A stretch of 64,000 nucleotides of DNA from an uncultured Candidatus Saccharibacteria bacterium (GTDB taxonomy: Bacteria > Patescibacteriota > Saccharimonadia > UBA4664 > CAYXHD01), in the NCBI GenBank assembly GCA_964585425.1, contig CAZPDI010000001.1, positions 4,804 to 68,803 on the forward strand, read 5' to 3'. The position numbers were made by a program, and so were the translations under genes. Below are positions 3,124 through 57,778 of the stretch, piece after piece; the stretch's first letter is position 1, and every line of letters starts with the position of its first letter. The notes under the pieces were generated by a model that had not been told where the DNA came from, ran no database searches, and was given only the letters and a program-made list of their open reading frames with translations.

Positions 3124-3193
3124 AAACACTTTTTTGCTTATTGCAACTTTGTGGCATTAAGGGGGTCTTATCGCAACTAATTCGCAATAAGCA
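3124..3193. promoter_or_regulatory. Dual-box operator-like module upstream of the FAD-oxidase gene, homologous to the znuA/zur intergenic module
   Basis: Box 1 is TTATTGCAActTTGTGGCATTA (3137-3158) and box 2 is TTATCGCAActAATTCGCAATAA (3167-3189). An 11-bp perfect inverted repeat TTGCTTATTGC (3133-3143) / GCAATAAGCAA (3183-3193) is also present. About 80% identical by eye to 60241-60304. Confidence 0.5.
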
Positions 3194-3279: not shown

Positions 3280-3365
3280 GCGCGAGTGGTGGAATGGTAG
3301 ACACGCTGGCTTCAGGTGCCAGTGGGGGCAACCCCGTGGAGGTTCAAGTCCTCTCTCGCGCACCA
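3280..3365 (+). tRNA. tRNA-Leu (anticodon CAG), class II with long variable arm, CCA encoded
   Basis: Acceptor stem GCGCGAG/CTCGCGC. Anticodon stem CTGGC/GCCAG with loop TTCAGGT. Variable arm GGGGGCAACCCCGT. T arm GGAGG-TTCAAGT-CCTCT. Discriminator A followed by CCA. Confidence 0.9.
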
Positions 3366-9936: not shown

Positions 9937-9977
9937 TCACACATGTTTGAGCGTCTCTGACGCTCAGATAGAAACCC

Positions 9978-10318
9978 GACAAAGCCAACCTACTACCCCG
10001 AAAGAGGTCCCGTGACCAAAATCACGAACCGCAGCATCGCTCCTGCTGGCAGCATCTCCCAGATCGCTCAGCTCCACCAGGACGGAGAGATCGACCGCGA
10101 CCAGACCACTCAGGTGATCGAAGTGGTTGCGGAACATGCCGCAGAGGCGCCAAACACCTGTCCGCGCTGTCAGCGCGCCAACTGCCCAGTGACGAGGGGC
10201 GGCAACTGCCAGTTGCCAGACATGAAGGTGGTGGATCACCTGGTTCGTCAGCTGCAGACCTCCAACTGATCTCGAGTCGGTCCTATGGGATCGAGGGGCG
10301 ACGAGGCTTGGCTTTGTC
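9978..10318 (+). repeat. 11-bp perfect inverted repeat bracketing cassette 1a (leader versus 3' hairpin loop)
   Basis: GACAAAGCCAA at 9978-9988 and TTGGCTTTGTC at 10308-10318. The 3' copy lies in the loop and 3' arm of the hairpin GGGGCGAC(10295-10302)/GTCACCCC(10316-10323). Confidence 0.7.
10012..10269 (+). CDS. GC-rich ORFan, 85 aa, with a C-terminal Cys cluster (CPRCQRANCPVTRGGNC)
   Basis: GTG start 5 nt after the SD AAGAGG. GC3-rich codons. No recognisable family. Confidence 0.55.
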   Translation: MTKITNRSIAPAGSISQIAQLHQDGEIDRDQTTQVIEVVAEHAAEAPNTCPRCQRANCPVTRGGNCQLPDMKVVDHLVRQLQTSN

Positions 10319-10335
10319 ACCCCCTTATAAAATAG

Positions 10336-10364
10336 TTGACTTTACATGATTATTAAAGTATAGT
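10336..10364 (+). promoter_or_regulatory. Candidate promoter of GC-rich cassette 1b
   Basis: TTGACT (10336-10341), a 17-nt spacer, then TATAGT (10359-10364), inside an AT-rich 80-nt spacer between two GC-rich ORFs. Confidence 0.6.
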
Positions 10365-10403
10365 TATTGTCATGCTTGCATACGAAGTATGCGCGCACCT
10401 TAC

Positions 10404-11207
10404 GACAAAGCCAACAACTACACCGAAAGGGGTCCCGATGGGATCTTCTGGAATTCTGGGGTTTCCCAAGGCTGCACACCGCGCCCCCACCATCAGCGAG
10501 GGGTACCAGGAGTACGTCGAGGAGATGACCGGCCTGGCCGTGTGCATGATCTGCGATAGCGGAACATGCCCCGGCGCCAGTGGACGCGCTTGCCCCTATG
10601 AACTCGACGTCTGCACCGTCTGCTGGCAGCTCGACTGCATTAGCGTCTTCGGTCACGACTGCCCTTCGGAGGAACGCTGCAACAACTGCGGTCACCTCCG
10701 GAACGAATTCGGCCATTACAGCAACTGCTCAATGCCCACAATGAAGCTGTGCGACGAGTGCGGGAGCGCAACCTGTCGCGTCAACCCGCCAAAGGAAATG
10801 CGAGAGGAGTACCCGTCGGACTACAATCCGTACTGGGATGACCACCACAGCATCTTCGATACGCTGGGCTGCCTCTTGGGTAGCCCGATCAGCGAGGAAG
10901 AACGGATCGCGGAAGAGATCGCATCGTGTTGGGCTCCGCGCACCGACCAGATGTCCCGAGATCGAGTACGGCAACAGATGCTGAGAACATGGATTGATCG
11001 TGATCTGGACAAAGCAGCTGAGGAAGCTCAGCAGCGCGCCGACCAGATGTCCCAGTCCATGCATCAGCTCACCGAGCTTGCGGACGACTACGACGACGGA
11101 CTGATCTCCGAGAACGTGGTTCTGATGCTCCTCCGGGCTGATCATCGCGGTGTACGGCTCTCCGGGTGACCTTTGAGGGTCGGTGAGCGTCAAGGCTTGG
11201 CTTTGTC
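10404..11207 (+). repeat. Second copy of the same 11-bp inverted repeat pair, bracketing cassette 1b
   Basis: GACAAAGCCAA at 10404-10414 and TTGGCTTTGTC at 11197-11207. The 3' copy lies in the hairpin GGTGAGCGTC(11182-11191)/GTCACTCACC(11205-11214), whose 13-nt loop aAGGCTTGGCTTT is conserved. Confidence 0.7.
10438..11169 (+). CDS. GC-rich ORFan, 243 aa, Cys-rich N-terminal half (14 Cys, four CxxC pairs) and acidic helical C-terminal half
   Basis: The start was moved to ATG 10438, behind the SD GAAAGGGG; the track start 10372 lies in the promoter. CxxC pairs are CMIC, CTVC, CNNC and CDEC. No family recognised. Confidence 0.55.
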   Translation: MGSSGILGFPKAAHRAPTISEGYQEYVEEMTGLAVCMICDSGTCPGASGRACPYELDVCTVCWQLDCISVFGHDCPSEERCNNCGHLRNEFGHYSNCSMPTMKLCDECGSATCRVNPPKEMREEYPSDYNPYWDDHHSIFDTLGCLLGSPISEEERIAEEIASCWAPRTDQMSRDRVRQQMLRTWIDRDLDKAAEEAQQRADQMSQSMHQLTELADDYDDGLISENVVLMLLRADHRGVRLSG

Positions 11208-11275
11208 ACTCACCTAAGTGTATATACACGATAAATACATTTAGGTGAGTATTATTAAGATAAACACAACTTCTA

Positions 11276-11304
11276 TTGACAAATAGGGTTTAGTTTGCTA
11301 TACT
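11276..11304 (+). promoter_or_regulatory. Candidate promoter of GC-rich cassette 1c
   Basis: TTGACA (11276-11281), a 17-nt spacer, then TATACT (11299-11304). Confidence 0.65.
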
Positions 11305-11365
11305 TATGCGCAATCTGGTGGAACACCCATCCGATAGAACACAGACCACAACCCAAGGAAAGCCC

Positions 11366-12103
11366 ATGTCTCAGCTCGTCATCGTCCAGGGCCCCAAGCC
11401 CCGCACGTCCGCGGTGTCCGACAAGGATGCCCACAACCTCCGCCTCCAGGCGGACAAGGTGCTGGCCAGGCACCGCGGTGATCTCCCCCAGGAGATCGTC
11501 ACGCAGCTGACCAGCCCGATGCCCGGCATCGTGGGCATGGGACTGCACGACGCGGCCTCCTGGATCAAGCAGCGCACCGCCAACCTCAAGCTGCAGTACG
11601 TGCAGCAGCACCCCGACTGCGAGGCGGCCATGGCCCTCAAGACCCGAGTCGACAACGTCCTCAACGGCGAGTTCGGCGACAAGGTCAAAAAGAGCCTCGA
11701 CATGCGTGGTCAGCGCATCCTCGAGCTGGACCTGTACCAGATCTTGAGCACCGACCAGCTGAAGAGCTTCGCCCACTTCGTCAAGAAGGCCGAGGCAGTC
11801 GAGGGTCGCTTGCAGACCGAGAAGGCACGCAAGGCGGTGCCGGCCCAATCGCTCCAGATGCTGTTCCCGTCCAAGGAGAAGCGCGAGCGCAAGCCGAAGA
11901 AGGTCAAGCCGGCCTACGCCGGTCTCCCCGCACCGTCCACCGGGATCGTCACCGACTGGAAGAGCGACGTCGGCAGCGTCGGTGCCCCGAACCCCCAGGG
12001 TCCGGCGCCGGCACGCGGCGTCACCCTCCGCAAGTCCGACAAGGCTCGCGCCAAGGGAGTGAAGGGTGGTGGCGTCAAGACCCGTCCGGGGCGACGCAAC
12101 TGA
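11366..12103 (+). CDS. GC-rich ORFan, 245 aa, with a Lys/Arg/Pro/Gly-rich basic C-terminal tail
   Basis: The start was moved to ATG 11366, behind the SD AAGGAAAG; the track start is 11306. The tail reads KEKRERKPKKVKP..KARAKGVKGGGVKTRPGRRN. No family recognised. Confidence 0.55.
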   Translation: MSQLVIVQGPKPRTSAVSDKDAHNLRLQADKVLARHRGDLPQEIVTQLTSPMPGIVGMGLHDAASWIKQRTANLKLQYVQQHPDCEAAMALKTRVDNVLNGEFGDKVKKSLDMRGQRILELDLYQILSTDQLKSFAHFVKKAEAVEGRLQTEKARKAVPAQSLQMLFPSKEKRERKPKKVKPAYAGLPAPSTGIVTDWKSDVGSVGAPNPQGPAPARGVTLRKSDKARAKGVKGGGVKTRPGRRN

Positions 12104-12119
12104 CCAGTTGATCTGCGTT

Positions 12120-12153
12120 CCCCGAGTCATGACATCGTCGTCATGGCTCGGGG
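12120..12153 (+). terminator. GC-rich hairpin closing cassette 1c, convergent with the uvrA 3' end
   Basis: CCCCGAGTCATGAC-atcgtc-GTCATGGCTCGGGG forms a 14-bp stem with one G-U pair. No clear U tract follows. Confidence 0.5.
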
Positions 12154-12163
12154 GATCAACACT

Positions 12164-30028: not shown

Positions 30029-30088
30029 ATAAGCTTCCTTTTATCTGGTTAGATTATAGCAAAGCCGGCACATTTGCACCACAATTAC

Positions 30089-30117
30089 TTGATTAAATAT
30101 TACTTTTATAGTAGAGT
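30089..30117 (+). promoter_or_regulatory. Candidate promoter of GC-rich cassette 2
   Basis: TTGATT (30089-30094), a 17-nt spacer, then TAGAGT (30112-30117). Confidence 0.45.
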
Positions 30118-30181
30118 TTGCTTATTCTTTTACAATCTAGCTAATCAGCCCACCACAACCAAACAAACAAAGGAGCGAGCG

Positions 30182-30556
30182 ATGATCACATGTGAAGTGC
30201 AGGACCAGGCTGGCGGGAAGTCCACGAGCGTCATCACCCTCGGTGATGCCCTGGCTGCCGTTGCCTACCTGATCGGCATCAGCGGGAACTCCCAGCTTGA
30301 GTACCACGAGCTGATCGAGGGCCAGTCGTTGACCATCATCTCGGAAGGACATGCCCTCGTTGGGCAGATCGAGATGCCGGACTTCGAGGAGGAGGAGCCC
30401 TACTTCGGCCTGATGTACACCTTCTCCAGCAACGGCGATCGCGACTTCGAGCTGTTCAGCCTGCTGGTTCTGCCGGCAATGTTGCTGAACCTGCAGCAAT
30501 GCGAACCGCAGGTGATCATCGAGCTCGAGCGGATGCGCCAACCGGTGACCGCCTGA
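30182..30556 (+). CDS. GC-rich ORFan, 124 aa, acidic
   Basis: The start was moved to ATG 30182, behind the SD AAAGGAG and a CA-rich leader; the track start 30074 lies in the AT-rich promoter. No family recognised. Confidence 0.55.
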   Translation: MITCEVQDQAGGKSTSVITLGDALAAVAYLIGISGNSQLEYHELIEGQSLTIISEGHALVGQIEMPDFEEEEPYFGLMYTFSSNGDRDFELFSLLVLPAMLLNLQQCEPQVIIELERMRQPVTA

Positions 30557-30573
30557 GGTTGCGGTGAGTAGGC

Positions 30574-30595
30574 CAGGTTCCCTCCGGGGAATCTG
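30574..30595 (+). terminator. Hairpin with C(UCCG)G tetraloop closing cassette 2
   Basis: CAGGTTCCC-tccg-GGGAATCTG forms a 9-bp stem with one G-U pair. No U tract. It is convergent with the HAD gene. Confidence 0.45.
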
Positions 30596-30630
30596 TGCCG
30601 ACCACCGGCTGATTGGCTAGATAAAAAGAT

Positions 30631-39942: not shown

Positions 39943-39977
39943 GCAAAGATTGTATCACATACAGCCCCTCATTGCTA

Positions 39978-40006
39978 TTGCATTATGTCGCAAAATATGA
40001 TTAAAT
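39978..40006 (+). promoter_or_regulatory. Candidate promoter of GC-rich unit 3a
   Basis: TTGCAT (39978-39983), a 17-nt spacer, then TTAAAT (40001-40006) with TG two nt upstream. The aaatNtgaTTAAAT block is shared with the unit 3b promoter. Confidence 0.5.
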
Positions 40007-40040: not shown

Positions 40041-40415
40041 ATGAATGCACCTGCCCGTCCCATGCCCGACATCACCGATGTGGAGCTGACCAAGAAGATC
40101 ATCGATGAACGTGTGAAGCACCACAACCTGCGCCATGAAGATGGTGAAGCGATCTGGATGGTAGTCACGGCCATCGGTCATGCCATCAAGATCGGTGATC
40201 CTCAGTACAGCCCGATGATCGACCGCAACGTCACGGGGCTGCGCAACGAGGCGAGGCCAGGCGAAGTTCCGGTCATCTTGCTGTCCGACCTGAACCGCAT
40301 CTTCTGTGACGACACGTTGATACGCGAGCTGCAGCGGGTGTTCCCGAGCATCGTCAATGATGCGGCGCGCGTTGCCTGCTGGAAGTTCCGCAACTGCATG
40401 TACGGATGCGACTGA
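40041..40415 (+). CDS. GC-rich ORFan, 124 aa (variable partner of module copy 1)
   Basis: ATG follows the SD TAAGGA. GC3-rich codons. It ends in the junction GAC TGA TC ATG. Confidence 0.55.
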   Translation: MNAPARPMPDITDVELTKKIIDERVKHHNLRHEDGEAIWMVVTAIGHAIKIGDPQYSPMIDRNVTGLRNEARPGEVPVILLSDLNRIFCDDTLIRELQRVFPSIVNDAARVACWKFRNCMYGCD

Positions 40416-40417
40416 TC

Positions 40418-40627
40418 ATGCGCCTTCGGATCCCCTGGCGCAAGCAAACCGTGCCGCCGCCACCCGCGACTGTCGCGATGAAGGCTGCGCCCCTGGTGCC
40501 GCCACCTCATCGCCGGATGACGGCCGAAGAACGCGCTGCGTGCTGCCAAGATCAGAGGAAGATCAAGCTGCGTGCTGCCAAGCGTTGTCGGCGCAAGGCC
40601 CGAAAGCGCCGACTGCGCAACAAGTAA
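40418..40627 (+). CDS. Pro-rich / strongly basic mini-protein, 69 aa (conserved partner, copy 1)
   Basis: The start was set at ATG 40418, matching the paralog junction TGATCATG; the track start is 40406. It shares the core VAMKxAPLxPPPxRRMTAEERAA and a K/R tail with ORF 42234..42467. Confidence 0.55.
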   Translation: MRLRIPWRKQTVPPPPATVAMKAAPLVPPPHRRMTAEERAACCQDQRKIKLRAAKRCRRKARKRRLRNK

Positions 40628-40647
40628 CCCCCGTGAGGCGGATCGCC

Positions 40648-40680
40648 GAAAGGTCCCTCTTGCGGGGGATCTTTCGTTAT
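40648..40680 (+). terminator. Terminator hairpin, divergent copy of the conserved island-3 terminator
   Basis: GAAAGGTCCC-tcttgcg-GGGATCTTTC followed by GTTAT. Confidence 0.55.
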
Positions 40681-40687
40681 GGTGATA

Positions 40688-40716
40688 TTGATTTATACCT
40701 GTAAATGTGATTAAAT
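40688..40716 (+). promoter_or_regulatory. Candidate promoter of GC-rich unit 3b
   Basis: TTGATT (40688-40693), a 17-nt spacer, then TTAAAT (40711-40716) with upstream TG. Confidence 0.5.
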
Positions 40717-40750
40717 TTCCCTATTCCGTTTCGAGTCCAAAGGAGAGACC

Positions 40751-40984
40751 ATGACGGACGCACATGCCACGGCCGTCTCCACGGTCTATTTTTGGCTCGA
40801 GTACGAGTTGGGTATCGATAATCCTGATCACGTTGAACTGACCATGATTATCGAGAATGGCTGGCTGCGCTATCGGTGCCCGGCCCACGACATCACCCCG
40901 CTTGAAATCGCCCGCCTCGAAGCTGCCTGCCGGCACCACGCCCATTCTCTTGAAGTGCACCTGAACCTGGAGGTTCAATCATGA
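40751..40984 (+). CDS. GC-rich ORFan, 77 aa
   Basis: ATG follows the SD AAAGGAGAG. ATGA overlap at 40981-40984 couples it to the next ORF. Confidence 0.5.
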   Translation: MTDAHATAVSTVYFWLEYELGIDNPDHVELTMIIENGWLRYRCPAHDITPLEIARLEAACRHHAHSLEVHLNLEVQS

Positions 40985-41733
40985 TTGTCCACAAGCACGA
41001 CATCGATACCGCAGCTCGTCTGGCCGCCAAAGAGCGGTTCATGAACGAGTCATGGCTGGATGATCGCAAGGTGCGATCATGGTTCGCTTGGCTCGGTATC
41101 CGTCCTGACGGTCATCAAGCATTGCGCATCTTGCGCGCTGTGCATGCCACGGCTGCCACCGTGCGTGAGTACAAGATCCACCATCGCCACACGCGCTTCG
41201 GTCGAACGATGCGCCTGCAGCGCCGGCTCCCACCGTGGCCCGCCAAGTACGCGGATACCCCGGTCATCAATGCCGCGCAGATGCTGCTGGTGACTCAGCG
41301 CACGGACTACATCCACCTCACGGAGCTGACGCGACCAATTACGGGTACCAGTTATCGGCACGGCGACAATCGACGCGTCGATATGGAAACGTGCAAGATG
41401 TTCCTGGAGAACGTGCAGAGCAAGTTCATGCGCGAAGCCGTTTGGTCAGATGAGTTGGTATGTATCGAGAGCTTTGCGCGGCTCGGCCTGACGCCCGATG
41501 AGCTGCTGGTGGCCGAGATGGCTCTGATCCGTCTGATGAGTAGGTATCGGCACGAAAAGGGGCTTACCTGGTATCTGATGCCGACCTATGGCAGCCGGAG
41601 CCGCCGCTTGCACACCCTCACCATGGGTGATTTCTTGAACATCACCCGATTTCTCCAACCCAACTATGGCGACACCGACATGGAGTTTCTCATGACGCTG
41701 GCCGATCGTCTGCGTTCGCGACTTGCGACCTGA
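40981..41733 (+). CDS. GC-rich ORFan, 250 aa, Arg/His-rich
   Basis: Translationally coupled to the 77-aa ORF. No motif recognised. Confidence 0.55.
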   Translation: MIVHKHDIDTAARLAAKERFMNESWLDDRKVRSWFAWLGIRPDGHQALRILRAVHATAATVREYKIHHRHTRFGRTMRLQRRLPPWPAKYADTPVINAAQMLLVTQRTDYIHLTELTRPITGTSYRHGDNRRVDMETCKMFLENVQSKFMREAVWSDELVCIESFARLGLTPDELLVAEMALIRLMSRYRHEKGLTWYLMPTYGSRSRRLHTLTMGDFLNITRFLQPNYGDTDMEFLMTLADRLRSRLAT

Positions 41734-41753
41734 TCTCGACACATACCCTCGCG

Positions 41754-41796
41754 GGGGCTTTTCTACGGAAAGGTCCCTGCGGGGGATCTTTCGTTT
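41754..41796 (+). terminator. Conserved 43-nt terminator element, copy A
   Basis: The element reads GGGGCTTTTCTACGGAAAGGTCCCTGCGGGGGATCTTTCGTTT. It contains the mini-hairpin CTTTTC-tacg-GAAAGG plus a 10-bp stem GAAAGGTCCC/GGGATCTTTC and a T-rich tail. Confidence 0.65.
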
Positions 41797-41801
41797 ATAG
41801 C

Positions 41802-41830
41802 TTGCAATATCAATACTTTAAATGTATAAT
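41802..41830 (+). promoter_or_regulatory. Candidate promoter of GC-rich unit 3c
   Basis: TTGCAA (41802-41807), a 17-nt spacer, then TATAAT (41825-41830) preceded by TG. Confidence 0.65.
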
Positions 41831-41859
41831 TTGTAAATCCGTACGACCAAGGAGTACCC

Positions 41860-42231
41860 TTGACCGAAGCCAATACCCTACCCAAGGCCGATGCCAGCGT
41901 CAAGCTGTCCGACGACATCATCGCAAGCTGCTACGAGGGCTGCGATCCCCGTGAGTCCGATCGAGCTCGCGGCTGCATCGCCGCCCTCAAGGACCTGCTA
42001 CGGCTCGCCGAGAAGACGCCGAACGACGCGCGCTACCAGGAGATCCGGGAGTTCGACGCCGACACCCTGACCGTTGGCCAGTTCATCACCCTGATGTACC
42101 TGCCGGCGATGTCGCCGAATCAGCCCCGCCAGCTGATGCGCAACGTGCGTAGCAACTGGGGGCGACTCAACCAGCGAGTTCTCATCGAGCTGCGAGACAA
42201 GCTGGATGAGCGCTACGAGCCCCAGGACTGA
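41860..42231 (+). CDS. GC-rich ORFan, 123 aa (variable partner of module copy 2)
   Basis: TTG start 5 nt after the SD AAGGAG. It ends in the same GAC TGA TC ATG junction as 40041..40415, but the two proteins show no visible similarity. Confidence 0.5.
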   Translation: MTEANTLPKADASVKLSDDIIASCYEGCDPRESDRARGCIAALKDLLRLAEKTPNDARYQEIREFDADTLTVGQFITLMYLPAMSPNQPRQLMRNVRSNWGRLNQRVLIELRDKLDERYEPQD

Positions 42232-42233
42232 TC

Positions 42234-42467
42234 ATGGGCATCTGGAACTCTCGGCGCAAGAAGACGACACCACCGCCACCTCCTCCTGCACCTCCTCCGC
42301 CGCCCGCGGCTGTCGCGATGAAGACTGCACCACTGGCGCCGCCACCGCGTCGCCGAATGACGGCCGAAGAACGCGCCGCTCTCAAGCTGCCCAAAGTGAA
42401 GGCCCGGCAGCGCCTGGCCAAGAACCGACGCGCCAAGGTCAGGAAGCGCAAGCACAAGAAGTCCTGA
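42234..42467 (+). CDS. Pro-rich / strongly basic mini-protein, 77 aa (conserved partner, copy 2)
   Basis: Paralog of 40418..40627. It contains PPPPPPAPPPPPAAVAMKTAPLAPPPRRRMTAEERAA and the tail KARQRLAKNRRAKVRKRKHKKS. Confidence 0.6.
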   Translation: MGIWNSRRKKTTPPPPPPAPPPPPAAVAMKTAPLAPPPRRRMTAEERAALKLPKVKARQRLAKNRRAKVRKRKHKKS

Positions 42468-42479
42468 TCGCGCCCCTGT

Positions 42480-42523
42480 GGGGACTTTTCTACGGAAAGG
42501 TCCCTGCGGGGGATCTTTCGTTT
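42480..42523 (+). terminator. Conserved 44-nt terminator element, copy B
   Basis: The element reads GGGGACTTTTCTACGGAAAGGTCCCTGCGGGGGATCTTTCGTTT. It is identical to copy A except for one inserted base. Confidence 0.65.
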
Positions 42524-42534
42524 TTAAATGAGAA

Positions 42535-42558
42535 AGACCCAGGATTTCTCCTAGGTCT
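42535..42558 (-). terminator. Hairpin with GAAA tetraloop terminating the minus-strand 143-aa cassette
   Basis: On the minus strand: AGACCTAGGA-gaaa-TCCTGGGTCT, a 10-bp stem with one G-U pair, followed by TTCTCATTT. Confidence 0.55.
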
Positions 42559-42603
42559 AGGGGCCAGGGATTCGACTACCCTGCACCCCCATCCACAACC
42601 TGT

Positions 42604-43035
42604 TCACGCCTGCATATCAGGCGGCAAGGTGAAGGCGTCAGGGTACGAGATGACCAGATCATTATCGTTCAACGGATAGATCGCGCCCCAGTCCGTAAGC
42701 ACGAACCGTTCGCAGAACGTCTGATCCACAGCACGAGCATACGCTGGTATATCACGCAGATCGTCTTTCGTCAGCTCTTGCCCCCAGTAAAAGGTCCCTT
42801 TGTCATGAGAGTTGTGAGTAACGACCTTGTCATCAGGACATATGAATGTGTAGATCTCTGTGAAATCAAAGCCGATAGCCCCTTGCTGGTGCTTAACCCC
42901 GAGAGGGTCACGGCCTGCCGTGACGATGGCATCAACTCGAGACAACACGCCAGTCGGGTATATGTAGCGAGCCACCAACAACTTGGTGGCGACCACGTCG
43001 ATGTGCTTGGTCTGGCTTTCACCCTCGGTATCCAT
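42604..43035 (-). CDS. ORFan, 143 aa, intermediate GC, own promoter and terminator
   Basis: ATG follows the leader ..CCAACCAACGAAGGGG, which carries the SD. No motif recognised. Confidence 0.5.
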   Translation of the reverse strand: MDTEGESQTKHIDVVATKLLVARYIYPTGVLSRVDAIVTAGRDPLGVKHQQGAIGFDFTEIYTFICPDDKVVTHNSHDKGTFYWGQELTKDDLRDIPAYARAVDQTFCERFVLTDWGAIYPLNDNDLVISYPDAFTLPPDMQA

Positions 43036-43119: not shown

Positions 43120-43545
43120 CTAGAGCCCCTCTATAAATGTCTCGATAAAGCTATTCAGCTTGCTGCCAACTCGAGTAATGATCGAGTCTCGCTCCAAAAT
43201 CTTGGGCTTAGCTATTAATGTAGCGGCAATCTCATTGCGGCGTGGCTTGCGGCCAGTGAATAAGTAATCGTTAATCAGTTTTTGCAATTCATCGGTCATT
43301 AGACCTTCTTCAACACACATGGCCTCAAAAGCTTTAGCGCGCTCGACATTCCAGAACGAATCAAACTCACCAGCTACATCTTCAGGATTCTCGATCTTGG
43401 GTAGCGATCGGGCAATAAATTTCTCAATCAGCTCGCGCTTGCTACGCAGCACGGCATTGCCCATAAGCGTGTTATTAAGATTATCGATTATCTGAGCTTT
43501 TTTTGATCTTCCGACATAACCCCTCGCTTTGTGTCTATTGTACAC
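43120..43545 (-). pseudogene. hsdR: Fragment resembling the C-terminal domain of a type I restriction enzyme R subunit (EcoR124-type HsdR)
   Basis: 141 aa. LRSKRELIEKFIARSLPKI..FDSFWNVERAKAFEAMCVEEGL..LINDYLFTGRKP..KLNSFIETFIEGL matches my memory of the HsdR C-terminal domain. The helicase and nuclease body is absent. Confidence 0.55.
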
Positions 43546-44393: not shown

Positions 44394-44422
44394 TTGCTTT
44401 TTTATAAGTTTTATGCTAGTAT
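44394..44422 (+). promoter_or_regulatory. Candidate promoter of GC-rich cassette 4
   Basis: TTGCTT (44394-44399), a 17-nt spacer, then TAGTAT (44417-44422). Confidence 0.45.
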
Positions 44423-44457: not shown

Positions 44458-44868
44458 ATGCCAAGCGCACAGACCATCCTCCCTCTGACCGCCGAACAGG
44501 TGGCCATGCCCGTGACCGCTGCCATCCTCACCACGGAGGACATCATCGGCGACCACGGGAGGTACCCGAAGGACATCGCTCACAGCTTGTCCACCATCTG
44601 CGAGTTCCTGCAGGAGGTCAAGCGGGAGGTCAAGCAGAGTCCAAGGGCCTACCTCGGCTGGTTGGAGTTGGCGGATGAGAACGGGGTGCGCTTCAGCGAG
44701 CGCGATTACCCCAGCATCACCGCAGGGTTCCTCCTGGCCGTGATGGAATCCAGCGCCGCCTGGGGCACCGTGATGAAGCACGGTCCGGAGGACTACTGCT
44801 TCGAGCAGCTGAACATGCTGAGGACGGCGGTCTACGCCCTCCTCTTCAAGCGGTCGCTGGCTGGCTGA
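44458..44868 (+). CDS. GC-rich ORFan, 136 aa
   Basis: The start was moved to ATG 44458, behind the SD AAAAGGAAA; the track start 44413 lies in the promoter. No motif recognised. Confidence 0.55.
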   Translation: MPSAQTILPLTAEQVAMPVTAAILTTEDIIGDHGRYPKDIAHSLSTICEFLQEVKREVKQSPRAYLGWLELADENGVRFSERDYPSITAGFLLAVMESSAAWGTVMKHGPEDYCFEQLNMLRTAVYALLFKRSLAG

Positions 44869-44893
44869 GGTTCTTCCTCCGCCAGCACCACGC

Positions 44894-44940
44894 CCCACTC
44901 GGGGTCTTCTACGGAAGACTCCGAGTGGGTTTTTCGTTTA
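44894..44940 (+). terminator. Intrinsic terminator with C(UACG)G tetraloop closing cassette 4
   Basis: CCCACTCGGGGTCTTC-tacg-GAAGACTCCGAGTGGG forms a 16-bp stem with one G-U pair, followed by TTTTTCGTTTA. It is convergent with typA. Confidence 0.75.
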
Positions 44941-44944
44941 TGCC

Positions 44945-46777
44945 TTACTTTTTGTTATTAGCGGCGCGCTTGCGCATGGAGGGGTTGAGTTCGCGTTTGC
45001 GGAGGCGGAGACTCTTGGGTGTGACTTCCAATAGCTCGTCGTTTTCCAGGAAGTCGATGCATTGTTCGAGGCTAAAAATAGTGTGTGGCGTGAGGCGGAC
45101 AGTGCCGTCACTGGATGAGCTACGCATGTTAGTGAGGTGTTTTTCTTTACAGACATTCATTTCCATATCGTCACCGCGGCTGTTGAGACCGACGATCTGA
45201 CCAGCGTAGACTTTGACGCCAGGACCAACGTACATGGTGCCGCGTTCTTCGGCCATTTGCAGGGCGTACGGCGTGGTCGTGCCAGTTTCGAAGGCAATCA
45301 GGGCACCGTTACGAAGTTGCTGCAGGGCGGGACCTTGCGGTTCGTAACCAACCATCAAGCTGTTCATGATAATTGTGCCCTTAGTGGCAGTTACTAAGAC
45401 GTTTCGAAGACCAAGTAAGGCTCGGGTTGGGAGTTCGTACACCAGTTTAGTGACGCCAGCGGCGTTGGCGAACTGCTCTTTAACGGTGGCGCGGCGTTGG
45501 CCAAGCTCCATTTGGACGGCACCGACGTATTCGGCCGGAACTTCGATGATGAGCTCTTCGATTGGCTCCATGGTCTTGCCGTTTTCTTGCTTGGTAACAA
45601 CTTGCGGGCGGCCAACTTCTAGCTCGTATCCTTCGCGGCGCATAGTTTCGATGAGCACCGACAGGTGTAGTTCGCCACGACCACTAACTAAATTGCCAAT
45701 TCCGCTGGGCTCGACACGCAGGCCAATATTGGTCTCCAGTTCTTTTTCGAGCCGTTCACCGATTTGACGGCTGGTAGTAAACTCACCTTCTAGACCCTTG
45801 AATGGACTAGTGTTTGGTCCTAGGTAAATCTGCAATGTTGGAGCTTCGATTTCCAGCACTGGTAGAGCTTCGGGCTGTTCGGCATCAGCAATGGTTTCAC
45901 CAATCTTGGCGTTAGCAATACCAGTAAGCTGGATAATCTCACCAGCAATGGCGCTGTCCACCGGATACTTGCTCACGCCTTGGCTGGCAAACACGCCATC
46001 AACTTTGGCTTTAGATTGCTTACCGTCTTTATCGATAAGGGTAACAGCATCACCAGTTTTAACACTACCGCGGGTAATGCGACCAACAGCGTATTTACCC
46101 TTAAATGAATCATACGAGAGAGCAGTGACAAGCATCTGGAAAGGCTTATCGAGCTCTACGTCTGGCGCAGGAATATCGTTCTTAATGGCAGTAAAGATTA
46201 CCTCCAGGTTAGCATCTTCTTCGGGATTAGCTGGCACCCCGGCCCAAGCTTTACCGGCGCGACCAATGGCGTAATAAATTGGGTAAAAGAGTTGATCTTC
46301 GTGCACGGCCAGCTCGAGGAAGAGGTCAGCTAATTCTTCTTCGACTTCGGCAATACGACTACCTGGCTTATCAATTTTGTTAATAACAACGATAGGCTTG
46401 AGACCCATGGCAAGTGCCTTAGAAAGCACAAACTTAGTTTGTGGCATCGGACCTTCTTGGGCGTCGACTATCAGTAAACAGCCGTCTGCCATATTAAGGG
46501 TTCGCTCTACCTCACCACCAAAGTCGGCGTGTCCAGGCGTATCGATAATATTAATGCGGATATCATCGTGCTGCACGGCCGTAACTTTAGCGGTAATAGT
46601 AATACCGCGCTCGCGCTCTTGGTCGCCACTATCCATGATCAGTTCTTGACCCATCTCGGCCTGGTTATCACGAAAGATTTTTGACTGCTTTAACAGGCCA
46701 TCTACCAGGGTAGTTTTACCGTGATCGACGTGAGCAATAATAGCAATATTACGAATGTTTTTTGGATCTTGTTGCAT
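44945..46777 (-). CDS. typA: Translational GTPase TypA/BipA
   Basis: 610 aa with [33 protein letters not shown] and NKID, plus the TypA-specific C-terminal domain. Confidence 0.95.
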
Positions 46778-54582: not shown

Positions 54583-54611
54583 AACAAATCCTTTTCTTGC
54601 TTTATAGCGCT

Positions 54612-54639
54612 ATTATACATCTATTTTCATAAATTGCGA
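54612..54639 (-). promoter_or_regulatory. Candidate promoter of the backbone gene 53647..54582; its sequence is repeated upstream of pyrC
   Basis: On the minus strand: TCGCAA-tttatgaaaatagatg-TATAAT, with a 16-nt spacer. Confidence 0.45.
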
Positions 54640-54642
54640 GCT

Positions 54643-54672
54643 GGCGCCGAGCGAGTCTTCCCGCCCGGCGCC
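54643..54672 (-). terminator. GC hairpin after pyrC
   Basis: GGCGCCG (54643-54649) pairs with CGGCGCC (54666-54672), a 7-bp GC stem 17 nt after the pyrC stop. No U tract. Confidence 0.45.
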
Positions 54673-54688
54673 AATCTCATGCTGCTGG

Positions 54689-55771
54689 CTACCCTGTCCA
54701 GCGCTGACGCTGCAGATCCTCTACCTGCCAACGCAACGTTTGTCCCGCCCGGAATGGCACCACCCCGCCGATCTCTTCAGGCACAGCCCAGGGGATCCTC
54801 GACAACAACACATAATTGTCGTCTTGTGGGGGCTCGACGCCGTAGAACTTGCAACCAGCAATGGAGACAAACTGCTCCAGCCTCTCCGGCCAGTCCTCCA
54901 GACCACTGTCCTCGAACAGTTCCGCCAGCACCGGCAGAGCAACTGGTCCGGAATACACGCCGTTGTTAGGCTTTGCCTTCAGCTTGTCCTCGATTCGATG
55001 AGGCGCCGAGTCGCTACCGAAGAAGATCTTGGGCGGATCACCCGGCTTGACACTGAGCATCGCAGCCAAGATGGCTTGACGATCTTCCTCGGTCTTGGCT
55101 CGCGGCAAACAGGCATGATGCGGCTGATCGATGACACCATCGTGCTCAACGTCATTAATGGTCAAGCATGGATGATGAGCCGTGATGGTGGCAGCGACGT
55201 TGGCCGGCAGCTCCATGATGAGGTTGATGGCATCGGCAGAAGAGACGTGCTCGAAGACGATTCGCAGACCCGGGAATGCCTCATGCACCTCCATGAACAG
55301 CTCGAGGAACATCTGCTCAGCATGAGCGAGATCGTCGGTTGAGACTTCGCCGTGCACGTTAAGCACGACATCAAGCTCCTGCATCACTTCAAATACTGGC
55401 CACCCGTCGTGGATATCCCGCAAACCAAAACCCGAATGAGTCGTGGTGTTGTACGGATAATACTTGACCGAACAGAATCCGTTGCGACGTTCGTACATCA
55501 GACGGATGATCGCTTCATCAGTGTCTGGCGTGAGGTACAAGGTCGGCCACAAGTTCACCATGTTCAGGCCTTTCAGCCCTGCCTGCACCTCTTGCAGATA
55601 GTGGAACGCATGCATAGCGTCACTTACTGGCACCGGGTTGAGGTTTGGCATGAGCAAGGCGTAATGGAGATGACCAATGCTGGGACGAACAACATCTTTC
55701 AGCAGACGTCCTTGACGAACATGAACGTGCCAATCGCTCGGACGACGCATCTTGAGTGCCAAGTAGGGCAT
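54689..55771 (-). CDS. pyrC: Dihydroorotase, short homodimeric (E. coli-like class II) type, GC-rich
   Basis: 360 aa. Motifs line up with E. coli PyrC as I remember it: KMRRPSDWHVHVRQG, MPNL, VKYYPYNTTT (carboxylated Lys position), HGEV, VFEHVSS, ATITAHH, FFGSDSAPH, FYG, VPFRAGQTLRW. Confidence 0.85.
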   Translation of the reverse strand: MPYLALKMRRPSDWHVHVRQGRLLKDVVRPSIGHLHYALLMPNLNPVPVSDAMHAFHYLQEVQAGLKGLNMVNLWPTLYLTPDTDEAIIRLMYERRNGFCSVKYYPYNTTTHSGFGLRDIHDGWPVFEVMQELDVVLNVHGEVSTDDLAHAEQMFLELFMEVHEAFPGLRIVFEHVSSADAINLIMELPANVAATITAHHPCLTINDVEHDGVIDQPHHACLPRAKTEEDRQAILAAMLSVKPGDPPKIFFGSDSAPHRIEDKLKAKPNNGVYSGPVALPVLAELFEDSGLEDWPERLEQFVSIAGCKFYGVEPPQDDNYVLLSRIPWAVPEEIGGVVPFRAGQTLRWQVEDLQRQRWTG

Positions 55772-55839
55772 GGTGAGTCCTTTCGGGACGTTGTGAGTGA
55801 ACGAACAAAGGTGTGCCTAAGCACACCTCCATAACCATT

Positions 55840-55867
55840 ACTATACACTATTATTCATAAATTGCGA
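55840..55867 (-). promoter_or_regulatory. Candidate pyrC promoter, near-duplicate of the 54612-54639 promoter
   Basis: On the minus strand: TCGCAA-tttatgaataatagtg-TATAGT. The shared string is GCTCGCAATTTATGAAnAATAGnTGTATA. A leader hairpin AGGTGTGC-ttag-GCACACCT follows. Confidence 0.45.
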
Positions 55868-55871
55868 GCGT

Positions 55872-55901
55872 CTGGGCCAGGGGAACTCTCCCCCGGCCCA
55901 G
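55872..55901 (-). terminator. GC hairpin after the pyrE-like gene
   Basis: CTGGGCCAGGGGA-actc-TCCCCCGGCCCAG forms a 13-bp stem with one mismatch. No U tract. Confidence 0.45.
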
Positions 55902-55923
55902 CGCGAACCGTTGAATACGGGGC

Positions 55924-56583
55924 TCAGGCTGCGAGTAACTGGACCCAGCCACCCTCGTACTGCGGGTTGACCTCATCGCGGTAGTGGGCACCGTGACCCA
56001 GCGCACCATCGACAACAATGGGCTTGCCAGCTTCACAGAGCGGACAAGCTTCGGCGTCGTAGGACGCGAAGTCCACGTGCGTCAGCTGCTCCAACCGGGG
56101 AACTCCGATGGCGTCAGCCTCCACACCGCCTCGGTTGCAGACGGCACTGATGCCGATCACCTCACCACCACAGGCTTCGATGGCCGCGCAGGTGCCCTGA
56201 ACCGAACTGCCAGTGGTCAGCAGATCCTCGATCACGAGAACGCGTTTGTTCTGCAGGTGCTGCGGGAAGCTCAGGCGATCGACCACGAAGTTGTTGCCCT
56301 CCTTGTCGGCCCACAGGCCAGGCACACGAAGACCCTTCTTGTGCAGTAGCCAGTTCGAGGCAGTGCTGGTGAGCGCCACGCCACCGGTTGCCGGTGATGC
56401 GACAACATCGAAACCGCCGTCGAATGGTCTGAGGAGATCCGAGACGATCTGGCTGAGCATCACTGGATCAGCGAAGATCGGGTCCATGCAGATGTAGCCC
56501 TCACCGTGTCCACCCTTCTTGTACACGAAGTGGTTGTCGAGAAAGACGGCTCCGACCTTCTGGAGGTACTCGAGAATGTCCAT
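55924..56583 (-). CDS. pyrE: Type I phosphoribosyltransferase, probable orotate phosphoribosyltransferase, GC-rich
   Basis: The start was moved to Met14 (56583), behind the SD AGGAA. The PRPP-binding motif is RVLVIEDLLTTGSS. The position between pyrC and pyrF supports the call. A C-terminal CPLCEAGKP motif is present. Confidence 0.6.
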   Translation of the reverse strand: MDILEYLQKVGAVFLDNHFVYKKGGHGEGYICMDPIFADPVMLSQIVSDLLRPFDGGFDVVASPATGGVALTSTASNWLLHKKGLRVPGLWADKEGNNFVVDRLSFPQHLQNKRVLVIEDLLTTGSSVQGTCAAIEACGGEVIGISAVCNRGGVEADAIGVPRLEQLTHVDFASYDAEACPLCEAGKPIVVDGALGHGAHYRDEVNPQYEGGWVQLLAA

Positions 56584-56631
56584 GTGCGTTCCTAACGTGA
56601 GACGAATGCGCCAACTGGTCACATCCGAATT

Positions 56632-56660
56632 ATTATCCTATTCATAAAAGTTATTTACAA
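56632..56660 (-). promoter_or_regulatory. Candidate promoter of the pyrE-like gene
   Basis: On the minus strand: TTGTAA-ataacttttatgaatag-GATAAT, with a 17-nt spacer. It shares TTTATGAATAG with the two promoters downstream. Confidence 0.45.
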
Positions 56661-56675
56661 GCATAAGTGTGTCGC

Positions 56676-56736
56676 CGGACGGGTGGGCAAAAAGTTTACA
56701 GTCCGAAGACCTTCTTCCTCCTCGCCCACCCGTCCG
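56676..56736 (-). terminator. Long hairpin after pyrF
   Basis: A perfect 13-bp stem joins CGGACGGGTGGGC (56676-56688) and GCCCACCCGTCCG (56724-56736), with a 35-nt loop that contains an inner mini-hairpin. Confidence 0.45.
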
Positions 56737-56742
56737 AGCATG

Positions 56743-57675
56743 TCAGGCCGCCAGGCGAACTCGCTCGATGGTCTCGTGCATGTTGGAGGCCTCAGCTTCC
56801 GACGCCTCAGCCGGAGCCAGACCCTCGTACTGCTGGTTGTCGTGAGCATGGGTGATGCCGCTCGAGGAGTTGATGGCGATGCCAGCCTGCTGGCTGTTGT
56901 GTCCGTTCTGGTAGGCGGCTGCAGCGTCACCGCCCTGCTTGTTTCCTACCCCAGGGATCAGGATCGGAACCTGCTCGCCAACACAACGACGAACGTTGGC
57001 AAGGTCGTCGATGGACTCGGGACTTGCGCCGGCCACCACACCGACGTTGCCTCGCTTGTTCCAGCCCTCCAGGCTGGCGACGTTCTGTGCGACTCGCTCG
57101 TACAGGAAGCCCTCCATAGTCACGCCCATGAGGGTTGACGAGCAGGTATCAAGCTTCTGGAACTCCTCGGCGCCAGGGTTGGATGTACGAGTCAGTACGA
57201 AGACCCCCTTGTCGCCACGGTCCAGCCACGGGGCCATGGCCTGTGCACCCATGTAGTTGTGGACGGTGACTGCATCAGCTCCGCAGACGTCGTAGGCGAA
57301 CGAGGCGTAGGTGTCATTGGTCGCTCCGATGTCGCCGGCCTTGAGGTCAAGGATCTTGACGACATCTGGCGCGTGGGTACGCATGTGCTTGAAGAGCAAC
57401 TCCAATGCCTGGATGCCTTCATGGCCATGCTTGAGGTAGAACCCCAAGTTGGGTTTCATCCAGCCGACTTTGCCGGCCAGGGCCTCGACGATCGGGAACA
57501 AGAAGGTGGTGAGCGTACCGCAGATGCTGGCCCGCTGGAAGCCCTCCGGGATGCGTGTGATCACCGGATCATCCTCGCGATAGGTGCTCTTGAGCGTTGG
57601 GTCGAGACCGGCGCAGACTGCACGGTGCTGCCCGGCGTTCAAGGCCACGAGCTCCGAAAAGCTGAGGTCGGACAT
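56743..57675 (-). CDS. pyrF: Orotidine 5'-phosphate decarboxylase, subfamily 2 (long form), GC-rich
   Basis: The start was moved to Met7 (57675), behind the SD GGAGAGGAG. Motifs are MKPNLGFY, the LDLKAGDIGATN signature (DxKxxDIxxT) and PGVGNKQGGD. Confidence 0.8.
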   Translation of the reverse strand: MSDLSFSELVALNAGQHRAVCAGLDPTLKSTYREDDPVITRIPEGFQRASICGTLTTFLFPIVEALAGKVGWMKPNLGFYLKHGHEGIQALELLFKHMRTHAPDVVKILDLKAGDIGATNDTYASFAYDVCGADAVTVHNYMGAQAMAPWLDRGDKGVFVLTRTSNPGAEEFQKLDTCSSTLMGVTMEGFLYERVAQNVASLEGWNKRGNVGVVAGASPESIDDLANVRRCVGEQVPILIPGVGNKQGGDAAAAYQNGHNSQQAGIAINSSSGITHAHDNQQYEGLAPAEASEAEASNMHETIERVRLAA

Positions 57676-57778
57676 GTCAGACTCCTCTCCCATCTGACGA
57701 TGAGATAGATTCGTGCGACCGAATTAGCCACATCCATATTAGTATGGTTTCTGGGACGCTTAAGAGCAAGCGTAAGAG

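Follow-up and report, generated by a model that had tools for sequence, protein, structure and literature searches.

The window analysed here is a 64,000-nucleotide (nt) stretch of contig CAZPDI010000001.1 from the genome of an uncultured Candidatus Saccharibacteria bacterium (assembly GCA_964585425.1), and the element in question is a hairpin-forming repeat that recurs in it behind small, GC-rich open reading frames (ORFs). The surrounding backbone is that of a bacterial chromosome of ~48% G+C that carries uvrA, uvrB, uvrC, typA, transporters and NYN-domain genes. The named relatives of its TypA, at 80–82% identity, are ‘Candidatus Saccharimonadales bacterium’ and ‘Patescibacteria group bacterium’, and the closest relatives come from wastewater and other metagenomes. 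An Rfam scan of the window found one family only, a tRNA gene at 3280–3362 on the plus strand.

At 40041–42526, three co-oriented units stand in tandem on the plus strand, each composed of an AT-rich sigma70-like promoter, a short leader with a ribosome-binding site (RBS), two ORFs, and a hairpin. The unit 1 promoter, located by a consensus scan at 39972–40006 (−35 TTGCAT at 39978–39983, a 17-nt spacer, and TGn with TTAAAT at 40001–40006), precedes ORFs u1a (40041–40415, 124 aa) and u1b (40418–40627, 69 aa, Pro-rich and basic); the predicted terminator T1 (40628–40681, tail AUCUUUCGUUAU) follows 0 nt from the u1b stop codon. In unit 2, a promoter at 40683–40716 (−35 TTGATT at 40688–40693, 17 nt, TGn with TTAAAT at 40711–40716) is followed by u2a (40751–40984, 77 aa) and u2b (40981–41733, 250 aa), and 12 nt past the u2b stop codon lies the predicted terminator T2 (41746–41798), with an 18-bp hairpin at 41746–41785, a C(UACG)G loop, and the tail AUCUUUCGUUUAU. 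The unit 3 promoter (41802–41830; TTGCAA-17-TATAAT, 10/12 consensus matches) begins 4 nt past the T2 tail and is succeeded by u3a (41860–42231, 123 aa, TTG start), u3b (42234–42467, 77 aa, also Pro-rich and basic) and, after 5 nt, the predicted terminator T3 (42473–42525), which again possesses an 18-bp hairpin (42473–42512) with a C(UACG)G loop and ends in the tail AUCUUUCGUUUUU. The two ORFs of unit 1, and likewise those of unit 3, are coupled via an overlapping stop/start context, TGATCATG. The unit 1 and unit 2 promoters constitute a 34-nt direct repeat (D5, 74% identical), with the TTG and −10 positions invariant in the promoter alignment; an orthologue of the unit 1 promoter is present in the related contig L006, and the unit 2 promoter is conserved in L004.

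T3 is the last element of the array, and no promoter lies downstream of it. It is abutted by a convergent, non-family terminator-like hairpin on the minus strand (42535–42558, terminator scan) that belongs to the ORF at 42604–43035; a hairpin scan placed a −35 kcal/mol hairpin over 42535–42590, next to T3. This minus-strand ORF encodes a 143-aa orphan protein with a G+C content at third codon positions (GC3) of 0.64, which is intermediate, and a promoter-like site of its own; possibly it is another cassette, oriented the opposite way. Further along the plus strand is a unit with a single ORF. Its promoter (44394–44422, TTGCTT-17-TAGTAT), read from the sequence and the promoter alignment, has a −35 context, GCTTGCTTTTT, that matches units A and B of L006. 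The GC-rich orphan ORF that follows (44458–44868, GC3 0.84) has its likely ATG start at 44458 behind an AAAGGA RBS, while the ORF list starts it at 44413, and 25 nt past its stop codon stands the predicted terminator T4 (44894–44941; 16-bp hairpin 44894–44929, C(UACG)G loop, tail UUUUUCGUUUAU). A first-pass annotation of the window, made from its letters alone, had described this isolated 16-bp hairpin, and it is found as described, as is a C(UCCG)G hairpin at ~30576–30594.

The same annotation had identified a 43–44 nt element shared by the three units. The repeat is real: the window holds exactly two copies of its 29-nt core, GAAAGGTCCCTGCGGGGGATCTTTCGTTT, at 41768–41796 and 42495–42523, where 100 dinucleotide-preserving shuffles gave an expectation of 0. 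Its dimensions require revision. A repeat finder returned a gap-free direct repeat of 54 nt, 41746–41799 and 42473–42526, that is 91% identical, reaches 8 nt further 5′, and brackets unit 3; the one-base insertion that had been read between the long copies is a G/A substitution (GGGGGC in T2, GGGGAC in T3), with the two copies in register. Four of the five T2/T3 differences fall within the first 12 nt, and the next 39 nt are identical; this clustering suggests a crossover, a mosaic, or a conversion tract. An 18-mer, TGCGGGGGATCTTTCGTT, has three copies, starting at 40661 (40661–40678), 41778, and 42505, the first of them within T1. The site that had been described as a short variant at 40648–40680 is a genuine one, though not short: T1 aligns with the long form along its whole length and is a full-length, diverged member of the family.

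The T2 and T3 transcripts are each predicted to fold at minimum free energy (MFE) into a single 18-bp hairpin with a UACG loop, at −36.0 and −35.6 kcal/mol (z −6.1 and −5.6), and no shuffled sequence was as stable. Directly 3′ of the hairpin in both long copies is the tail AUCUUUCGUUU, and both copies were independently called terminator-like by a consensus scan (18 pairs, 4-nt loop, T-rich tail). The T4 region, 44865–44950, has an MFE of −39.1 kcal/mol (z −5.4). T1 folds either as two arms over 40628–40668 or as a 12-bp hairpin, GAAAGGUCCCUC-UUGC-GGGGGAUCUUUC; its orthologue in L004 carries three pair-strengthening changes and reaches −34.7 kcal/mol. The 16–18-bp stems with 4-nt loops have energies of −32 to −36 kcal/mol and z-scores of about −5 to −6.

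Sequence comparison among the copies corroborates the hairpin. We queried covariation on a MAFFT alignment of 11 copies that was not fitted to any structure, with 500 shuffles as controls. The 18-bp helix is paired in 96.9% of cells, shows double-sided changes in 5 pairs (14 cells), and scores 0.419 for covariation as compared with 0.287 ± 0.025 after shuffling, a value reached by 0/500 shuffles; in slid registers, pairing falls to 42–64%. At each of the four stem positions where T2 and T3 differ, the bases still pair (U-G/C-G, C-G/U-G, C-G/U-G, and G-U/A-U), an outcome with an estimated chance probability of ~(1/3)^4.

Two mutually exclusive folds had been proposed for the element, which would suit an attenuator-like switch. 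One of these, CTTTTC-uacg-GAAAGG, is the apical 6 bp of the 18-bp hairpin. The other can indeed be drawn as a second hairpin of 10–11 bp (GAAAGGTCCC...GGGATCTTTC), as the tail AUCUUUC is complementary to GAAAGGU of the 3′ arm, and the two folds of T1 are close in energy. However, this second helix is 20 kcal/mol weaker (−15.1 vs −35.3 kcal/mol), with an equilibrium probability of ~1e-14, and it lacks specific covariation support: it is 85.7% paired, which was matched in 31/500 shuffles, and the register slid by −1 is as good at 87.4%. There is thus no evidence for a two-state switch, since the second helix performs no better than its shuffled and slid controls. Its complementarity is explained by a purine run that faces the U-rich tail and by a CCCnnnGGG palindrome that is present twice, and the element lies 3′ of ORFs rather than in a leader. 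We regard a switch as very improbable.

The fold is strand-specific. T2 reaches −35.3 kcal/mol in the sense orientation and −16.2 kcal/mol in antisense, and the sense fold is favoured by 10–19 kcal/mol in the best members because many of the pairs are G-U, a bias that points to selection acting on RNA. UNCG-type loops (UACG, UUCG, and UCCG) cap 12 of the 24 members, in keeping with the recurring cUNCGg loops noticed in the first pass, and the 12 nt after the stem contain 5–9 U residues across the 24 members and 7–9 in the four window copies. A function other than termination could be considered for such structures, namely that they are mainly 3′ messenger RNA (mRNA) stabilising or processing structures, or barriers to exonucleases or antisense transcription, with termination as a secondary effect. 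The stems are far stronger than termination needs (−32 to −46 kcal/mol), several sister units carry no U-tract, and UNCG tetraloops are typical of stable RNA caps. Yet the U-rich tail, ..UCGUU(U)AU, is kept even where the stem has diverged, and a promoter placed immediately downstream makes sense only if upstream transcription is stopped; we therefore consider a mainly stabilising role improbable.

To map the distribution of the family, a covariance model (CM) was built from the 11 long copies. Relatives of the locus were reached via u2b (L002–L004), the flanking ABC ATPase (L005–L013), and TypA (L014, L015). In the window, the CM detects four members, T1 (33.4 bits, E 2.4e-6), T2 (65.8 bits), T3 (67.9 bits), and T4 (34.8 bits, E 1e-6), all directly 3′ of GC3-rich ORFs, while its best backbone match scores 13.8 bits (E 0.4). 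Related Saccharimonadales contigs add approximately 25 members, which again stand behind GC-rich orphan ORFs and are located mostly at the corresponding hot spot. Throughout the ~237 kb of window and relatives, every sense-strand match of at least 24 bits lies directly 3′ of an ORF of raised GC3, and no member is found in the backbone. A member outside the main hot spot, at 3159–3207 of L014, is again positioned behind a GC-rich inserted ORF. A hairpin scan of the window likewise placed all intergenic hairpins of at least −34.4 kcal/mol strength at the 3′ ends of GC-rich units.

The hot spot sits between an NYN/ABC operon and a restriction-modification locus, in the same place in the relatives, and the set of small GC3-rich ORFs that occupies it differs in every relative. 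Almost all of these ORFs have behind them a hairpin built to a common plan: CCCC(T/C)G(Y)(R)GGGG, arm, loop, arm′, CCC(T)G(Y)GGGGG, and then a tail of the form ..YTTTYCGTT(T)AT. A sigma70-like promoter follows each internal copy, its −35 (CTTGnn) beginning 3–10 nt past the tail, and this arrangement of terminator-like hairpin and promoter recurs in L004, L005, L006, L010, and L011. The restriction-modification neighbours vary. All that remains in the window of the hsdMSR system, which L006 (1–6485) keeps intact at this position, is a 141-aa fragment on the minus strand (43120–43545) whose match to a type I restriction R subunit (EcoR124_C, HsdR) is limited to the C-terminal end; other relatives carry EcoRII/Dcm, Vsr/Dcm, or MmeI systems, which makes the hot spot a defence island as well.

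Public collections were scanned as well. A first metagenome scan with the exact element gave no match, and a scan with the family pattern gave one contig, L016, with the same layout between metK and hsdR; the collection missed the matching Joint Genome Institute (JGI) contigs of L010 and L011 and is thus without those samples, so that its silence is weak evidence. Among 185,579 species genomes, the exact element had one borderline match, in L001, a low-GC Saccharibacteria metagenome-assembled genome, which is at chance level (~1.6 expected by our own calculation) and scores only 16.5 bits with the CM. In L001, at 1840–2100 on the plus strand, this only exact match to the second hairpin of the element ends a ~200-nt GC-richer intergenic stretch after ndk. 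The stretch could be a small structured RNA, and it has no Rfam match at the gathering threshold.

This distribution bears on the suggestion, also made in the first pass, that the element is a modular part or a repeat similar to the repetitive extragenic palindromic (REP) sequences. The modular part of that suggestion holds: one terminator-like hairpin is reused behind different ORFs of GC-rich units, and it recurs in related genomes. For a palindrome that spreads on its own, such as a REP, a bacterial interspersed mosaic element (BIME) or a miniature inverted-repeat transposable element (MITE), the case consists in an imperfect palindrome of ~40 nt in several copies, and like REPs and BIMEs, the repeats here are imperfect palindromes able to act as terminators or mRNA stabilisers. 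REPs, however, are distributed genome-wide in hundreds of copies and are linked to REP-associated tyrosine transposases (RAYTs), whereas this family occurs only behind GC-rich cassette ORFs, with no copies in the backbone intergenic regions of the window or the relatives. Every copy is in one orientation, 0–25 nt from the stop codon of the upstream ORF; the gene tables of L005, L006, L010, and L011 contain no transposase or RAYT-like gene; and the species-genome scan gave nothing beyond the single borderline match. The common backbone repeat without association to GC-rich units that the first pass had named as its own refutation is thus absent from the ~237 kb, and we attach minimal probability to an independently mobile palindrome.

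The cassette ORFs set themselves apart by composition. GC3 is 0.77 in u1a, 0.71 in u1b, 0.67 in u2a, 0.73 in u2b, 0.84 in u3a, and 0.71 in u3b, as against ~0.5 in the flanking genes, and it rises to 0.96 in cassette ORFs of the relatives. Ten GC-rich ORFs had no match in Pfam, PHROGs, PADLOC, or NCBIfam. u2b has two relatives among 5.8 billion proteins (5.8e9), and u3a has one real distant homologue among 1.84 billion representatives (1.84e9), with weak relatives also in the L010/L011 cassettes; all real relatives of the two come from the same clade. The other match in these searches, the eukaryotic repeat protein P0124, was judged spurious. The AlphaFold2 model of u2b (pLDDT 45) was unusable and that of u3a is all-helical (pLDDT 68); Foldseek searches against PDB and BFVD returned nothing better than E ~1.6.

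A phage origin was looked for and not found: megablast of 36–47 kb against 50,697 phage records gave no match, tblastn of nine GC-rich ORFs gave none at E ≤1e-3, and IMG/VR scans with the DNA element and with u3a found nothing. A high-GC donor was likewise rejected, with no cassette homologue in any sampled high-GC organism or phage. It is possible that the cassette ORFs originate in unsampled mobile elements or through GC-biased conversion within a recombining pool.

The first pass had called the ORFs of the units unrelated. This stands for unit 2 compared with units 1 and 3, and it fails for the paralogues u1b and u3b, which are 87% identical in nucleotide sequence over 86 nt and 62% identical in amino acid sequence over 47 residues. 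Together with L004 77–310, these two plus-strand ORFs (40418–40627 and 42234–42467) encode highly basic, Pro-rich proteins with the core PPxRRMTxEERA. Many otherwise dissimilar cassette proteins also have in common an N-terminal W-L-D-(D/A/P)-Q-like motif ~25–45 residues in, observed in the ORF at 40981–41733 of the window and in cassette ORFs of L005, L006, L008, L010, and L011.

Comparison between relatives shows that cassettes turn over, with breakpoints that appear to fall at the modules formed by the hairpin and the adjoining promoter. Between the end of unit 1 and the T2 tail, the window is collinear with L004 at 91.6%; beyond the tail, the two carry different cassettes. The order and combination of cassette families vary among L005, L006, L010, and L011, and both short-read contigs L002 and L003 are broken within the repeat. 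L010_223 and L011_211 are homologous cassettes with different surroundings. Their terminators are identical at 50/50 positions, while their ORFs can be aligned over one half only, at 84% identity; the terminator has stayed with its ORF despite the different neighbours, as expected from the first-pass suggestion that the part travels with the cassettes. Another homologous pair differs by compensatory changes in the inner stem.

Purely vertical paralogy offers a different account, in which tandem duplication was followed by fast ORF divergence, the terminators were kept by purifying selection, and the modules took no part in movement. The u1b/u3b paralogues, both behind an ORF of ~123 aa via the same TGATCATG junction, are what such a history would leave, as are the W-L-D-x-Q motif common to several cassette proteins and the orthologous first units in five genomes, whose terminators are related and gradually diverged. 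Against this, u1a has no similarity to u3a, nor is u2b related to one or the other. The units of T2 and T3 have nothing else in common, and yet these two terminators are 91% identical, with the differences confined mostly to the 12-nt cluster described above; cassette order is shuffled between genomes; and in L004 the cassettes are replaced right after the terminator. We consider vertical descent alone unlikely.

A tandem array of mostly orphan genes, each with an imperfect hairpin at the 3′ end of the cassette, also brings to mind the attC recombination sites of integrons. The resemblance is confined to this layout. The RYYYAAC and GTTRRRY core sites and an inverse core in the 5′ arm are absent, and the tails read GTTTATA, GTTTTTA, and GTTATGG. 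Every unit has a promoter of its own; the G-U pairs favour the sense RNA strand and not bottom-strand DNA; and within 10 kb of the hot spot, no integrase, tyrosine recombinase, or transposase was found in the four loci L005, L006, L010, and L011. An attC-like site would be extremely improbable here. Saccharibacteria are naturally competent (PMC10633639), which renders homologous exchange plausible.

Taken together, a model for the element emerges. It would be a Rho-independent terminator of small autonomous units that occupy a hyper-variable hot spot on a Saccharimonadales chromosome, each unit being made of a promoter, an RBS leader, one or two GC-rich orphan ORFs, and the terminator. The sense RNA would form a G+C-rich hairpin of 16–18 bp with a UNCG-type tetraloop 0–25 nt past the stop codon, and transcription would stop in the U-rich tract, (A)UCUUUCGUUU, that follows. 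The near-consensus sigma70-type promoter of the next unit begins 3–10 nt further on, and from the stop at hairpin and U-tract with a promoter immediately behind, terminator and promoter would together act as a composite insulating boundary between cassettes. Common ancestry of the cassettes, together with sequence exchange at these boundaries, may explain why the copies are alike; cassettes would be inserted, deleted, and reshuffled through homologous recombination or gene conversion in the modules, as described for the promoter-early stem-loop (PeSL) motifs, which combine terminator and promoter in T4-type phages (Arbiol et al. 2010, PMC2839356; Comeau et al. 2014, PMC4122927). Our best reading is that intrinsic terminators and adjacent promoters probably constitute PeSL-like boundary modules of moron-like cassettes; termination and recombination are the steps that we infer.

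Several observations weigh against this reading. The U-tract is interrupted by C and G, the window copies included, and elsewhere in this genome, GC-rich units carry hairpins just as strong whose U-tract is slight or missing; the main role of the hairpins might be to stabilise RNA or to serve as barriers. The conservation could be due solely to purifying selection that followed tandem duplication, and a terminator more conserved than its ORF fits concerted evolution but equally fits strong constraint. Recombination at the modules is read from a small number of comparisons, a search for a clean empty site of unit 3 gave none, single-copy as opposed to duplicated promoter modules are seen cleanly only in an island at 54.6–57.8 kb, and the search of the source genome covered 64 kb.

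That island (54630–57760, minus strand) carries genes similar to orotidine monophosphate (OMP) decarboxylase, phosphoribosyltransferase, and amidohydrolase, each with its own promoter and hairpin; the hairpins reach −36 to −46 kcal/mol and mostly lack a U-tract. Units A and C of the island are each flanked by direct repeats of the promoter module, for instance 54611–54641 and 55839–55869. In L015 (4964–5766), the phosphoribosyltransferase unit stands alone with its promoter modules in single copy; L014 1–3159 was compared as well. Duplicated modules of this kind would be expected from a single crossover of a resident module with a circular or incoming module-ORF-terminator segment, or from deletion between repeated modules.

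Two further GC-rich islands of the window show boundaries of their own. Island 1 (9964–12160, plus strand) comprises three promoter-ORF-hairpin units and reuses its own terminator, with copies at 10288–10327 and 11177–11216 that are 78% identical. A motif of its 5′ untranslated regions (5′UTRs), CGACAAAGCCAAC (9977–9989 and 10403–10415), is complementary to the terminator core GGCTTGGCTTTGTC at 12/13 and 11/12 positions, which was reached by 0–1 of 200 shuffles. Island 2, a single GC-rich unit at 30070–30625 (plus strand), has a CTTGAT-17-TATAGT promoter, an ORF at 30183–30557, and the C(UCCG)G hairpin mentioned above. Its 5′UTR sequence ATCTAGCTAATCAGCC (30137–30152) and its 3′ flank GGCTGATTGGCTAGAT (30608–30623) are 16-nt inverted repeats matching at 15/16 positions, as in 0/200 shuffles; at the same position L006 (20057–20482, minus strand) has a different ORF and the same inverted repeat with a compensatory change, CAGTC/GACTG. 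These inverted repeats could reflect 5′–3′ pairing in the mRNA or be the terminal repeats of a mobile cassette. Complementarity between 5′UTR and terminator is significant for islands 1 and 2 and not for the three units of the array at 40041–42526.

Going beyond boundary modules, it is conceivable, though we hold the idea only tentatively, that the modules serve as recombination handles of a chromosomal cassette-exchange system in competent Saccharimonadales, which would maintain and reshuffle a population-wide pool of strongly expressed GC3-rich orphan genes and would be the counterpart of phage PeSLs on a bacterial chromosome. Placed next to restriction-modification loci, the pool might supply host-interaction or anti-defence factors, and extreme GC3 with no visible high-GC donor might be the product of GC-biased conversion in a recombining pool, not of recent import.

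Saccharibacteria and other bacteria of the candidate phyla radiation have tiny genomes and depend on host bacteria, and to our knowledge little is established about how they gain and express new genes. In one wastewater clade, accessory genes appear to come as insulated promoter-ORF-terminator units whose boundaries are related in sequence and which cluster at hot spots next to restriction-modification systems. Should exchange run through these boundaries, they would provide a simple, recombinase-free means of shuffling ready-to-express genes, and a mechanism known from T4-type phages only would extend to a cellular genome. As candidate genetic parts, the terminator and promoter sequences could be of use in Saccharibacteria, which have recently become tractable, and the CM is a marker for finding such cassettes in metagenomes. 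The reused terminator taken alone is a tidy but modest result.

How far the element corresponds to known systems can be stated in terms of likeness and difference. By sequence criteria, it qualifies as an intrinsic terminator: a G+C-rich hairpin with a UNCG-class tetraloop and a U-rich 3′ tract, just past the stop codon and on the same strand. UUCG loops were reportedly observed by d’Aubenton Carafa et al. in 1990 to be enriched in terminators, and the UNCG-type loops in half of the members fit this enrichment. The differences are an unusually long stem of 16–18 bp, a U-tract interrupted by a conserved CG, and a conservation across genes and genomes that extends to sequence and is not of shape alone.

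The units themselves resemble morons, a concept said to be due to Hendrix and colleagues. Morons are independent transcription units of deviant composition in temperate phages (Cumby et al. 2012, PMC3594210), and as in morons, a promoter, a gene, and a factor-independent terminator stand here between conserved genes, with a composition unlike that of the neighbours. Morons are not thought to move via their regulatory sequences (discussed in PMC2839356). The present units differ in lying outside a prophage, in a housekeeping context where no phage proteins were detected, and in forming tandem arrays with sequence-related boundaries.

The closest parallel is with the PeSLs, which in phages mediate insertions, deletions, and the formation of mini-circles by homologous recombination (PMC2839356, PMC4122927). 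Common to both is a stop-to-start spacer with a G/C-rich stem-loop, an AT-rich stretch, a strong sigma70-like promoter, and a Shine-Dalgarno site, a layout present in T1 with the promoter at 40683–40716 and in T2 with that at 41802–41830. Both also occur as many similar copies in hyperplastic regions, flanking ORFans, and in both the cassettes are transcriptionally insulated, here as a prediction from sequence. In the phages, insertions, deletions, and replacements between close relatives are bounded by the motifs, and the few comparisons made here suggest that the same may hold for the modules. The differences are equally apparent. The host is a Saccharimonadales chromosome and not a T4-like phage, with no phage similarity found; the stem is longer, at 16–18 bp, and capped by UNCG loops; the terminator half is the most conserved and moves with the upstream ORF, whereas the promoters are more variable; and the cassette ORFs are strongly GC3-enriched relative to the genome. 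Because it resides in a cellular chromosome without phage similarity, the element would resemble a PeSL in its working while not belonging to that phage family.

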